Assembly (NCBI GenBank): GCA_026625185.1
Contig: CP113000.1
Span: 1,185,622 to 1,217,621 of the forward strand
Reading direction: 5' to 3'
Source: Thermodesulfobacteriota bacterium
GTDB lineage: Bacteria > Desulfobacterota > WTBG01 > JAGOGO01
Length of the DNA: 32,000 nt
A model generated the notes under the pieces. It was given only the letters and a program-made list of their open reading frames with translations. It searched no databases and was not told the DNA's origin. The position numbers and the translations under genes are program-made. Each line of letters opens with the position of its first letter. The first letter of the stretch is position 1. Shown here in pieces: positions 24,216 to 30,753 of this stretch.

Positions 24216-24227
24216 CTCAAAAATATC

Positions 24228-24260
24228 AAGCACTTGGCTATTTTGGCTAAGTGCTTTTTC
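24228..24260 (+). terminator. Rho-independent terminator of the tRNA pair
   Basis: AAGCACTTGGC-tattttg-GCTAAGTGCTT (11 bp including one G.T) followed by TTTTT. Confidence 0.7.
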
Positions 24261-24471
24261 AGGATATGAAAACCCATTCCGGCAATTCCTTCCAACCTTC
24301 TCTTAACTTTTCTTCTTTCCTTTGCTTCAAGAGGTCAAGTAAGCTCTCGGCTAATTGTTTTGACATATCAACGCGCCGTCCCTTGCCACTTTTCGGGGTT
24401 TCAATCCTACCGCGCGAAAACCTTCTAAGAACACTTATAAACCGCCAGTGAAAGTCAGAAGTATTTTTTAA
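24259..24471 (-). pseudogene. Tyrosine recombinase/phage integrase internal fragment (70 codons)
   Basis: The minus-strand frame gives ..FISVLRRFSRGRIETPKSGKGRRVDMSKQLAESLLDLLKQRKEEKLREGWKELPEWVFIS*. The motifs ..tPKsGksRrVdms..L and PEWVF are typical of the region preceding the catalytic HxxR/Y part of integrases. Both the N-terminal and the catalytic C-terminal parts are missing. Confidence 0.65.
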
Positions 24472-24730
24472 TTAAATTTTTCATTTTAACTAATACCTTA
24501 AAATAGGACATTCCGAAAACAAAAATGCCTGAGATTTCTCTTGGTCACAGAAAACCGCCCATAATGTCGCCACTATGGGAATCTCAAGCGCTTTGTTTTT
24601 TTGTTGTTTTTAATTTCAGGTTTCTTTGTTTGAATATTTTTTATTATTTTAAATTAAAAATAGAAAAAGAAAACAAGGTAGTAAAATACTTTTTCTTGCT
24701 TTCTTGATGTTTTGAAATTATAAAGAACCT

Positions 24731-24901
24731 ATGGAAAAGAAAATGCTTTCAACCCCTATAAGAAATGACCTCCTTAAGGAATTTAAAAAAATTGCTATTG
24801 ACCTCGAAAGGCCAATAAACGCCCTTCTTGAAGAAGCCATGCAAGACCTTCTTGCAAAATACGAAAAGAAAGTAAAGGGCAGTCCGAAAAAGGAAACGTA
24901 A
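24731..24901 (+). CDS. Ribbon-helix-helix (CopG/Arc/MetJ-like) DNA-binding protein, 56 aa (not in the supplied ORF track)
   Basis: MEKKMLSTPIRNDLLKEFKKIAIDLERPINALLEEAMQDLLAKYEKK.. shows a beta-strand, helix, helix pattern. The RBS is weak. Confidence 0.5.
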   Translation: MEKKMLSTPIRNDLLKEFKKIAIDLERPINALLEEAMQDLLAKYEKKVKGSPKKET

Positions 24902-24927
24902 GAAAAAATTATAATGTTACTTCAAGG

Positions 24928-25356
24928 GTGATCAAAATGATAAGTCTACGGTTGAATGGTCGGCTTTTAATAACAGCGTTTATGGTAATGTTTCTCGGTG
25001 GATGCGGACCGAAACTGATTGTGCCTTCTGACCTGCCCCCGGAGCAACGAGCACATATACGAGGTACGGTTGGTGGATCTGTTTTCGCGGGCGCCGACAT
25101 TATTGCCGTTGATGGAGAAGATCTGTCTTCTGCAAATGCTGCCGATATTAGTCCTGGCACGCACAGGGTTATCCTTCAATATAATCGTCCCGGAGGCGGT
25201 AGTGTCGGACCGGTAGAACTGCAATTTGAGGCAGAAGCCGGCCACGACTACATTGCTAAATGGCATTATTCCTGGTCAAAATCATACTATTACTTTACAA
25301 TCGATGATGCCCAGACCGGTAAAGTTGTTGTTAGTGGTGGGGAAACCCCACCCTAA
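24928..25356 (+). CDS. Hypothetical lipoprotein
   Basis: A signal peptide ends in the lipobox FLGGC. The mature part (..IIAVDGEDL......ISPGTHRVIL..) was not assigned to a family. The alternative ATG at 24937 has a better SD (AGGGTG). Confidence 0.7.
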   Translation: MIKMISLRLNGRLLITAFMVMFLGGCGPKLIVPSDLPPEQRAHIRGTVGGSVFAGADIIAVDGEDLSSANAADISPGTHRVILQYNRPGGGSVGPVELQFEAEAGHDYIAKWHYSWSKSYYYFTIDDAQTGKVVVSGGETPP

Positions 25357-25383
25357 TTATTTTGTAATTCATTATATTCCTGA

Positions 25384-27888: not shown

Positions 27889-27894
27889 TTATGG

Positions 27895-28560
27895 TTAACC
27901 TACCCAGGTCACCAATTCCTCCAAATTTGCTCTAGATCTTTCAAATTTATTAGCAGGTGCGTTCCAGTCAGGATATCCGAGGGCCACGCCCATAACGATG
28001 ACCTTGGTATCAGGAATGGACAACAATTTTCTCAGAACCTCTGGGTACATCACCGAAACAGCCATAATAGTAGTTCCCAACCCTTTTTCATGAGCAAGAA
28101 GACAAATCGTCTGCAGGATAAGTCCGATGTCAAGCATCCCGTAGTCAAGGGAGATGCCCTTATCAAGGCAGGCGACCATAAGACATGGGGCACCGAAAAG
28201 GTTAAACATCTTAGCATAGAGCTCATCACGGAGGTCTTTCGCTTTCCGAGGGATGTTGAGGGCATTCAAAAGACGCTTTCCAAATTCCGTGTATCTTTCA
28301 TTTGGCTTTTCAGGCCATTTTTCAGGCATTGAGATTTCTGGTGAGCTAGTTGCTCCGGTCTGAAGCTTTTCAAGGTTCGCTTCTTTAAACTTTTCTAATG
28401 TATCTCCAATGACCACATAAAACTCCCATCCCTGGGTATTTCCCCAAGAAGGCGCCCACCGGGCTTCTTCCAAGATTTCTTGAATAATATCCCGTGACAC
28501 CTGATCTGGCTTATACATGCGGATACTCCTTCTTCCCGTTACTGCTGTGCTTACTTCCAT
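27895..28560 (-). CDS. Nitroreductase family protein
   Basis: RRSIRMYKPDQVSRDIIQEILEEARWAPSWGNTQGWEFYVV; the RBS is AGGAGA. Confidence 0.85.
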   Translation of the reverse strand: MEVSTAVTGRRSIRMYKPDQVSRDIIQEILEEARWAPSWGNTQGWEFYVVIGDTLEKFKEANLEKLQTGATSSPEISMPEKWPEKPNERYTEFGKRLLNALNIPRKAKDLRDELYAKMFNLFGAPCLMVACLDKGISLDYGMLDIGLILQTICLLAHEKGLGTTIMAVSVMYPEVLRKLLSIPDTKVIVMGVALGYPDWNAPANKFERSRANLEELVTWVG

Positions 28561-28753
28561 GTGTTGTCTCCTAATAGTTATTTGTTTAGGAATAAACCTT
28601 TATTTTTCCTCATCCTGAAACCCTCAGTTATGGGGATCTTTTTTTTCACTTTTTTTCTTCCCTTCTCCTTCCGCGGTGAGGATGGTAATTATTGATAATC
28701 CGGGGCAATCCAGAGGAAGCCCCCCGGCTTTTTGCTCAGGAGACCAACCGAGT

Positions 28754-29083
28754 TTAAGTTTTTGGAGAACATACAACTGAACCACCTGACTTTCCATGCG
28801 ATTCCACCGCACAACAACCCGAAGATTTATTACGACTCAACGTGGCGCTGACGAGTGCATGAGCGCAACCTACTCCAGGGCGAACATTAATCGCCTCTAC
28901 GGGACAGTTTGTGGCACAAGCTCCGCATTCCATGCAGGCATCTCGGCTCTTGATCAAAGCCTTACCATCGTTCAAGCTCCATACGGCATGCGGGCAAACC
29001 GAAAGACACATGCCGCAACCAATACATTTTTCCTCATCTAACGTCAGAGTAACAACGTATTTGAGATAAATCAATTGCCCCAT
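28754..29083 (-). CDS. hgcB: Mercury-methylation ferredoxin HgcB (2x[4Fe-4S])
   Basis: CIGCGMCLSVCP and the diagnostic CMECGACATNCP are present, along with a conserved Cys in PGVGCA and a vicinal CC (SGCCAV) near the C-terminus. The junction reads hgcA TGA-GGAG-9 nt-ATG. Confidence 0.85.
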   Translation of the reverse strand: MGQLIYLKYVVTLTLDEEKCIGCGMCLSVCPHAVWSLNDGKALIKSRDACMECGACATNCPVEAINVRPGVGCAHALVSATLSRNKSSGCCAVESHGKSGGSVVCSPKT

Positions 29084-29095
29084 AACTTGAACTCC

Positions 29096-30160
29096 TCATA
29101 CAATGAAGTGTGATCCAATCCATATACTCAACCCTATAACGCCTGCTCCAATTTCGAGGGGTAACGCCCAGCGTATTTCCTTTTTTACCCCGGAGAGAGA
29201 GGTGTAGGTCGAGGCACCAGTGAAATTCATCCCCAAATAAGCTGAAAGCGCTGGAATTAGAAATATCCAGCTGAGCATTTCAATATGTTCGCCCTTTGAA
29301 ACCATGTTATCCCATCGAAATAAGAGTAAAAGCGTTACAGTAATGATGCCCATACTCATGCCTTTTAAGGAAAAAGCTCGGCCTGGAAGCCAAGGTAGCA
29401 ATAAAGGAGTGAAAACTGTGCCGGAAAGAACGGCTGCCAAAAAAATCATAATGGTAAAAATGCCATGATTAAATGCGCTTACCAAAAACCCTCCTGATCC
29501 CCCCATCCCTCCGATAAGAAACATAAGACTCAGAGCGATAATAATGGCCGATTTGGGAAAAGTCACAAGCTCCACGGGTATTAACACTGCCCGCTCCCAA
29601 ATCGTAAAAGATTTGCGCCGCATCTCTGAAGTTGCTTTTAGTCCAGCCTCTATAAAGGCAGGAAGATCTTCTGCTTTAATAGGTCCATACGTTACCTTAA
29701 AACCAGAGAGTTCTTTGACTCGGTGAGCTGCTACTCCAGGGGCAGCCAGTTGAGGTAAAATCAATTGCCGATGAGATACAACCTGGGGCAACCTGGTTGA
29801 TTCTATACGATTAACAAGTTCTGTTGTACCGAAGGTTCCAGCCCCGGCTGCACACCATACATTAATCCCATTGGTGTCCAAAACCAAAATCCATACATTC
29901 TTACTGGGAAGCGCCTGTCGAAGCTTGTCAAAGCTCATTTTATAATTAGCCGTAACCAAAACGGGAGAATGCTGATCAGGATTACCCAAAGCGTATAAGC
30001 CTGGGTCAACGGTATAATGCATCCGCCCTACAGCACATCGGGCTTTGAAAGTTCCCACATGATCAGCCCAGTTCAGTAAGGTGGATACTTGCGGAACCTC
30101 TCCTGCCGGAGTCTGAACCGAACCAACAACAAAGGGTTGGTTGAAACCAGGAAAACCCAA
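29096..30160 (-). CDS. hgcA: Mercury-methylation corrinoid protein HgcA
   Basis: TPAGEVPQV, VLVTANYKMSFD, VLDTNGINVWCAAG(A)GTFGT (cap helix with Cys103), ILPQLAAPGV and LPWLPGRAFSLKG are present. The C-terminal half has five predicted TM helices. The start is TTG. Confidence 0.88.
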   Translation of the reverse strand: MGFPGFNQPFVVGSVQTPAGEVPQVSTLLNWADHVGTFKARCAVGRMHYTVDPGLYALGNPDQHSPVLVTANYKMSFDKLRQALPSKNVWILVLDTNGINVWCAAGAGTFGTTELVNRIESTRLPQVVSHRQLILPQLAAPGVAAHRVKELSGFKVTYGPIKAEDLPAFIEAGLKATSEMRRKSFTIWERAVLIPVELVTFPKSAIIIALSLMFLIGGMGGSGGFLVSAFNHGIFTIMIFLAAVLSGTVFTPLLLPWLPGRAFSLKGMSMGIITVTLLLLFRWDNMVSKGEHIEMLSWIFLIPALSAYLGMNFTGASTYTSLSGVKKEIRWALPLEIGAGVIGLSIWIGSHFIV

Positions 30161-30753
30161 CTGGGCCTTTTTCTCCTTGGTTCAGAGTTTGGTAGATGAG
30201 GAAATCCGTGAAACGGATTCATTACCGCGACTACTTTCCGTCAGTGTCCCACATCTGATTTCGGTTGTATCCTTTTTTGTTTCGTCCATGTTTAACAATT
30301 CGTAGTTAACAAACAAGAAAATGAGTTTGTGATAGTTATGATTCTATTTAACCAAAATTCCGGTGAAAATTAAAGGTTTTTTACGGTGGAAGATAGTATA
30401 TATTAGGGTAGGCCTTTATTATCAGAGGTTTTTGATTGCCTGCCAGAGTCTGTAATAGCAAAATGTTTGATAATACTTATGCTATTCAGGTCTTACGAAT
30501 TAATCTTAGAAGGTGAAAGTCAATAATAATTAAATACGTTGGGATAAAAACACCACGATGAAGTGAGAACTTTACTTTTTTAAAGATTGCCAAATTTTAA
30601 AGACGTTAACAACAATCTAAAAATCTTCTCTTAAATATGGTATTATGAAAAATTAAAAAAGGTATCCAGACGTGAAGGGCCAAGATTTTTTGATCCTGAC
30701 GGTAAAATTTTAAATAAGCCTTTTTGCTGCATTACAATAGAAAGGTGCAAAAA

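Follow-up and report, generated by a model that had tools for sequence, protein, structure and literature searches.

How a predicted mercury-methylation gene pair came to lie in DNA that the closest relatives of its host lack is the question raised by one 32,000-nt stretch of a Thermodesulfobacteriota genome (assembly GCA_026625185.1, contig CP113000.1), referred to below as the window. The pair, hgcAB, has a patchy distribution that is usually ascribed to horizontal transfer and loss. In the window it belongs to a 9,465-bp insert (24231-33695), which starts just past a tRNA-Glu gene and has its right edge 1.7 kb beyond the window end. The part beyond that end was read from L081, a 99.6-kb contig of a metagenome-assembled genome (GCA_029216095.1) from the same genome, which is 100% identical to the window over 12.9 kb and reaches 8.1 kb past it; this ~8-kb extension brings the sequence read to 40 kb in all. 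The block probably represents a lineage-specific insertion into a hot spot beside a tRNA gene, with the relic of a tyrosine-integrase element at its edge, and has since been eroded and remodelled. Because the pair sits in a block that the closest relatives are without, hgcAB was either gained at the tRNA-Glu site or moved to it.

The left anchor of the site is a pair of plus-strand tRNA genes, tRNA-Lys(UUU) at 24061-24134 and tRNA-Glu(UUC) at 24141-24216, which follows purA (22573-23877) and which ARAGORN places after purA in every relative. To the right of the insert, L081 encodes on the minus strand, in this order, an LTXXQ/DUF4890 protein, a 107-amino-acid (aa) protein, an extracytoplasmic function (ECF) sigma factor, and a Metal_resist/LTXXQ protein. 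A protein search gave ~19 purA clusters 86-94% identical to that of the window, whose contigs all retain serC-serA-purA-tRNA-Lys-tRNA-Glu, and six contigs from relatives (purA 88-92%) run from tRNA-Glu nearly straight into the LTXXQ/ECF-sigma operon. In L179 and L180 (purA 89%) the match to the window stops at 24230 and is taken up again at 33696 after a single base pair; the interval after tRNA-Glu is 84 bp in L086 (purA 92%) and 335 bp in L087-L089 (purA 88%). None of the island genes occurs in the 92 purA loci.

Since relatives that carry both flanks are without the block, it is a real insertion, which is the outcome of a comparison that the initial annotation of this DNA had proposed as a check on its reading of an integrated element. 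That annotation had ended the island at 30545 and treated slp, a gene for an Slp-family outer-membrane lipoprotein, as flanking; the far edge lies instead at window-equivalent 33695, outside the window, and slp is inside the insert and missing from the empty-site relatives. The insert would be slightly shorter if a hairpin and T-run 3' of tRNA-Glu (24226-24258, plus strand), read from the sequence as the tRNA terminator, were taken as ancestral; the BLAST alignments of L084 and L178 to the window extend to 24244-24250.

The direction of the change was read from a neighbour-joining tree of the 4.2-kb serC-serA-purA segment, rooted with L090 and bootstrapped 200 times. The window, L084, and L086 cluster to the exclusion of L087 in 199 of the bootstraps, and the empty-site taxa L086 and L087 are paraphyletic. 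Gain is therefore favoured over loss, one gain standing against at least two deletions.

Within this one clade the site takes the form of 0-1 bp, 84 bp, 335 bp, 1.7 kb, 9.5 kb, or other unrelated sequence. The 1.7-kb state, in L178 (purA 92%), is a different insert with a methyltransferase, while L084 and L085 (purA 94%) and L090-L092 (purA 79%) continue into unrelated sequence on contigs that stop less than 650 bp from the tRNA. Because different relatives hold different sequence there, the site is a hypervariable hot spot. A short intergenic sequence missing from the window is also partly shared by L087 and L178. L084 (11536-11575) and L090 (11535-11575), which past tRNA-Glu are unlike the window and unlike one another, have in common a motif, GTGTCCAAATAGT...ATTTGAAAT, just beyond the tRNA terminator; the motif could be the end of another element type using the same site.

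At the tRNA-proximal edge, the minus strand at 24262-24456 reads DFHWRFISVLRRFSRGRIETPKSGKGRRVDMSKQLAESLLDLLKQRKEEKLREGWKELPEWVFIS between two flanking stop codons. This 65-codon piece lies 45 bp past tRNA-Glu and is a genuine remnant of a tyrosine integrase. On its own it scores below threshold (Pfam Phage_integrase, E=0.09; integrase PHROG, E=0.03), as do its matches to plasmids, but when 1.84 billion representative proteins were searched exhaustively with HMMER, 541 matched at E<=1e-3, the best at 1e-16. The full-length matches are integrases of 390-410 aa with Pfam Phage_integrase and SAM-like N-terminal domains, and the remnant aligns at 55-63% identity to residues ~217-281 of ~400, so that ~215 N-terminal and ~110 C-terminal codons are gone. 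It retains the beta-hairpin Lys region (TPKSGKGRRV); judged by the invariant columns of the homologue alignment, it is without Arg-I, the H-x-x-R box, the last His, and the Tyr nucleophile, and no intact site-specific recombinase is present. A second integrase piece was not found in the 40 kb. Relatives of the integrase family, with identities no higher than 37%, also occur in IMG/VR viral contigs, where they often lie close to the end of the contig. The gene has its 3' end towards the tRNA; in lambda-type prophages the 3' end of int likewise points at the left attachment site, attL.

Beside the remnant and divergent from it lies a plus-strand gene (24731-24901) for a 56-aa ribbon-helix-helix (RHH) protein of the Arc-like phage repressor type (PHROG 3180, E=6e-12; Pfam Antitox_RHH, E=2e-4). 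The initial annotation had recognized both the internal integrase fragment and the RHH gene, and both identifications hold. It had also placed an XRE remnant between them, for which Pfam gave no family match; by six-frame reading, 24466-24730 is an AT-rich non-coding spacer.

The initial naming of hgcB and hgcA is likewise borne out. HgcA (29096-30160, minus strand), a corrinoid protein with a transmembrane domain, scores 449.6 bits against the NCBIfam equivalog NF040863 (cut-off 275) and covers profile positions 1-324 of 325; HgcB (28754-29083, minus strand) scores 122.4 bits against NF040864 (cut-off 99). The hgcB start lies 13 nt past the hgcA stop codon, and HgcB is a ferredoxin with two CX2CX2CX3CP motifs (CIGCGMCLSVCP, CMECGACATNCP) and a C-terminal Cys pair (...SSGCCA). 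The cap helix of HgcA, NVWCAAGAG (residues ~97-105; 29845-29871), keeps its catalytic Cys and has Ala in place of the canonical Lys, and so fails the high-stringency motif N[V/I]WC[A/S][A/G/S]GK (Capo et al. 2022, PMC10087281). Just five of the 120 nearest HgcA homologues carry this substitution (P0001, P0002, P0003, P0005, and P0008). HgcA and HgcB are thus a predicted mercury-methylation pair with a variant cap helix; they mark out a small HgcA subclade that standard high-stringency screens would drop.

The nearest other copies of hgcAB, in L083 and L095 (HgcA 91% identical), have different surroundings, and the boundaries of the pair are those of a module. By BLASTN, these loci match the window across 28767-30446 (1.68 kb, 92.5% nucleotide identity, hgcAB on the minus strand), from 13 nt ahead of the hgcB stop codon to 286 bp upstream of hgcA. 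In both, an IS3-family transposase (orfA/orfB; Pfam HTH_Tnp_1, E=1e-9) with in-frame stops lies ~300 bp upstream of hgcA (L083 1-480; L095 1-260), and both contigs end within this pseudogene. The genes downstream of hgcAB in L083 and L095 are unrelated to those of the window and are unlike even between the two. Among 83 other hgcA loci, the IS3 match is confined to these two. Loci with hgcA at 70% identity lie in unrelated housekeeping contexts and have no neighbour in common with the window. The named homologues of both HgcA and PurA belong to the Deltaproteobacteria/Thermodesulfobacteriota, and because they fall in the same phylum-level group, no cross-phylum transfer is indicated.

A short intergenic repeat at 15390-15436 of the window recurs in L084 (841-873 and 4831-4863), in L086 (9019-9054), and at the end of L095 (22 nt, exact), and may be a clade-specific element of the repetitive extragenic palindromic (REP) kind. 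That L095 has this 22-nt sequence in common with the window hints that L083 and L095 come from a congener.

The remaining parts of the block have no evident bearing on mobility. A predicted lipoprotein with the lipobox FLGGC (24928-25356, plus strand) gave no match in family searches. Three assignments of the initial annotation stand here: an acetyl-CoA hydrolase/transferase::GNAT fusion of 620 aa (25526-27388, plus strand; Pfam), a nitroreductase-family protein of 221 aa (27895-28560, minus strand; Pfam), and, between them, a remnant of a major facilitator superfamily (MFS) transporter. The best non-self homologue of the fusion is 75% identical; all its homologues have the same architecture, which is common in Desulfobacterota, and the nearest lie in unrelated contexts and have no neighbour in common with the window. 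The MFS remnant (27496-27723, minus strand) is a C-terminal scrap of 75 codons of Spinster type that matches transmembrane helices TM11-12 of SPNS2 (PDB, residues 352-389; E=7e-4) and Pfam MFS_1_like (E=0.04); a plasmid search gave no match. By tblastn, none of the 83 other hgcA loci has the nitroreductase gene beside hgcAB.

Beyond hgcAB lie slp (30724-31260, plus strand; Pfam Slp, E=3e-38) and an orphan gene for a 417-aa AAA+ ATPase with an N-terminal winged-helix-like region, which runs on the plus strand from 31780 past 32000 to window-equivalent 33033 in L081. The ATPase is only weakly IetA-like: the PADLOC IetA model gives E=1.6e-5 (22 bits), and NCBIfam IteA, which has a cut-off of 510, gives 17.7 bits. 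An assignment to the IetAS defence system was rejected because it falls below the family cut-off and no protease gene (IetS) is adjacent. A PAS-like scrap follows in L081 at ~33.1-33.3 kb (window-equivalent). The gene scraps (int, MFS, and PAS-like) sit at several internal joints of the block.

Two further segments of the window are absent from relatives. One, of 133 bp (23918-24050), lies between purA and tRNA-Lys and is missing in every relative; because it is bounded by imperfect 22-nt inverted repeats (23917-23938 and 24030-24051, 77% complementary), it resembles a miniature inverted-repeat transposable element; no second copy was found in the loci compared. The other, ~430 bp long (16332-16762) and not in L084, L087, or L179, is a further mobile-element scar in the window: its minus strand holds coding sequence for a transposase C-terminus that matches PHROG 5749 (E=3e-6) and looks ISL3-like by eye.

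The explanation that we favour would run as follows. The tRNA-proximal edge would be the leftover of a lambda-like integration module, in which a tyrosine-integrase gene faced the tRNA attachment site and an Arc-like repressor was encoded divergently. The element would have entered tRNA-Glu by site-specific recombination; later deletions would have taken attL, both ends of int, and the right attachment site, attR; and the block would then have been reworked until cargo genes and gene scraps formed a mosaic, with hgcAB as a self-contained 1.68-kb module in its middle. In its present state the block is no longer mobile.

Several observations weigh against this explanation. The polarity is drawn from one flanking locus and from metagenome contigs. 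The initial annotation had also proposed a search for a direct repeat of the tRNA-Glu 3' end; we compared 24170-24250 with the window and the 8-kb extension, using exact 11-mers to 20-mers with 3 mismatches, and found no such repeat at or near the far edge. The few loose matches, of 13- and 16-mers, are dispersed over other parts of the 40 kb. The junctions are without duplication or microhomology, and a general repeat search gave only short pairs at chance level. The lack of an attachment-site repeat is expected if deletions took the original junctions, but we infer, rather than observe, both that the insertion was mediated by the integrase and that hgcAB arrived with the integrase element and not after it. 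In addition, the 83 other hgcA loci (579 kb) contain no tRNA gene, related integrase, or other island gene, hgcA was not found in the IMG/VR viral contigs, and L083 and L095 match the window only across the hgcAB module, with unrelated flanks.

Composition, too, gives little sign of a single foreign element. The overall GC content of the block is close to that of its surroundings (45.05% versus 44.5% for the rest). The initial impression that 25.5-27.4 kb is GC-richer was correct relative to serC, serA, and purA (0.49 versus 0.44-0.47), but the value falls within the range of the window, which reaches 0.50 elsewhere. GC content at third codon positions (GC3) was compared with 30 neighbouring genes (mean 0.453, sd 0.062), a reference of only 30 kb of sequence. 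Two of the seven block genes are outliers: the CoA-transferase::GNAT fusion at 0.58, the highest among genes inside the window, and the AAA ATPase at 0.67, the highest in the 40 kb. Host-like values were obtained for hgcA (0.40), hgcB (0.42), slp (0.41), and the nitroreductase gene (0.46), and the lipoprotein gene stands at 0.39. By their GC3, hgcAB appear compositionally native, and the spread from 0.39 to 0.67 inside the block suggests that its genes came from different sources or at different times. The initial picture of an old, eroded integrated element is fair for the tRNA-proximal edge, given the integrase remnant, the scraps, and the absence from relatives. The further proposal of a vehicle for hgcAB is only partly supported: the block is a mosaic and has no attachment-site repeat, nothing ties the integrase's element to hgcAB transport, the GC3 of hgcAB is host-like, and the nearest hgcAB has other flanks; the stub is not demonstrated to be their carrier.

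That the hgcAB module has sharp limits and that GC3 is mixed speaks for a mosaic history, which leads to an alternative that is possible but that we regard with some doubt, namely stepwise accretion at a recombination hot spot. The integrase/RHH stub would then be the relic of a small element, and hgcAB, the CoA-transferase::GNAT fusion, and the AAA ATPase would have come separately, by events that could include homologous recombination with a congener or movement mediated by insertion sequences (IS), so that the integrase was not the hgcAB vehicle. Such accretion would account for GC3 values of 0.58 and 0.67 next to those of hgcA, hgcB, slp, and the nitroreductase gene, for homology that breaks off at 28767 and at 30446, and for an MFS scrap caught between the CoA-transferase and nitroreductase genes. 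It is also consistent with the other inserts that relatives hold at the same site and with the IS3-family pseudogene ~300 bp from the module in L083 and L095, where unrelated genes follow. However, no IS end, transposase, or repeat was found around hgcAB in the window: the sole 18-nt inverted pair there, 28591-28608 with 30365-30382, consists of AT-rich sequence, and 33 pairs of this kind occur in 8 kb. Nor was an intermediate found among the relatives, such as an island without hgcAB.

That the block was instead already present in the ancestor of the clade and was lost by deletion from the relatives, with hgcAB inherited vertically at this site, seems to us improbable. The host-like composition of hgcAB would agree with such a history, as would a nucleotide identity to L083/L095 (92.5%) that corresponds to housekeeping divergence within the clade (93-94%), and the 22-nt clade-specific repeat in L095, which hints at a congener. 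Yet the paraphyletic empty sites would need at least two deletions with nearly identical end points, and there are three short states (0-1, 84, and 335 bp) and an intergenic piece common to L087 and L178 that is not in the window. Moreover, ~19 purA clusters are at least 86% identical to that of the window, compared with one hgcA cluster at 80% or above, and the congener-like L083 and L095 have hgcAB in another context. Still more remote is an assembly or binning chimera that put a foreign hgcAB contig beside purA. The contigs of several relatives do break right after tRNA-Glu, as would be expected of a region that is hard to assemble, but L081 crosses both junctions at 100% identity, and the exact HgcA protein is also found in a second contig of 50-200 kb and in a contig of 3.3 Mb. 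Because four independently assembled contigs have the same join, we reject mis-assembly.

A decayed tRNA-associated island is of an ordinary kind; what is new here is the hgcAB cargo together with the evidence from empty sites. Like tRNA-associated islands and cryptic prophage remnants of the lambda/P4 type, the block lies directly 3' of a tRNA gene, has at its tRNA-proximal edge an integrase gene accompanied by a small repressor, bears cargo that has nothing to do with mobility, and is missing from close relatives. Unlike them, it retains 65 internal codons of its integrase, has no direct attachment-site repeats and no clearly atypical overall composition, carries a mosaic cargo, and ends on the far side in a gene-poor spacer and not in a tRNA-derived repeat. 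The site also resembles chromosomal hot spots, or plasticity zones, in that a single intergenic position holds different accessory DNA across members of a clade; in contrast to those, it is known here from metagenome contigs alone, and two of its variant states are incomplete at contig ends.

The canonical hgcAB loci are reportedly those of Parks et al. 2013. Like them, the present locus has hgcA and hgcB adjacent on the chromosome without conserved neighbours, and both proteins pass equivalog cut-offs. It departs from them in that the pair is part of an insertion polymorphism and has an integrase remnant 4.6 kb away, in that a 91%-identical relative lies ~300 bp from an IS3 pseudogene, and in its cap helix, NVWCAAGA in place of N[V/I]WC[A/S][A/G/S]GK.

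In a survey by McDaniel et al. 2020 (PMC7438021), hgcA turned up neither close to insertion sequences or transposases nor on viral contigs, and because so large a survey found none near mobile elements, the mechanism of hgcAB transfer has been without a physical example. Our full-text literature searches for hgcA with an integrase, a genomic island, or a mobile genetic element found no such case described. The present locus combines an insertion polymorphism that is clean and has mapped end points, the relic of an integrase at the edge of the insert, and a sister hgcAB beside an IS3 relic; these three features make it a defined case for weighing gain, relocation, and loss. We suggest, tentatively, that mobile elements may carry hgcAB around this Desulfobacterota clade as a 1.7-kb cassette and leave it in one chromosomal hot spot or another. 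The sites in question might be, with the same reserve, tRNA-Glu with its integrase relic here and an IS3-adjacent position in the congener. Published surveys sought such transfers and found none; if the cassette reading is true, these would be the first concrete mobile-element-associated transfers of hgcAB.

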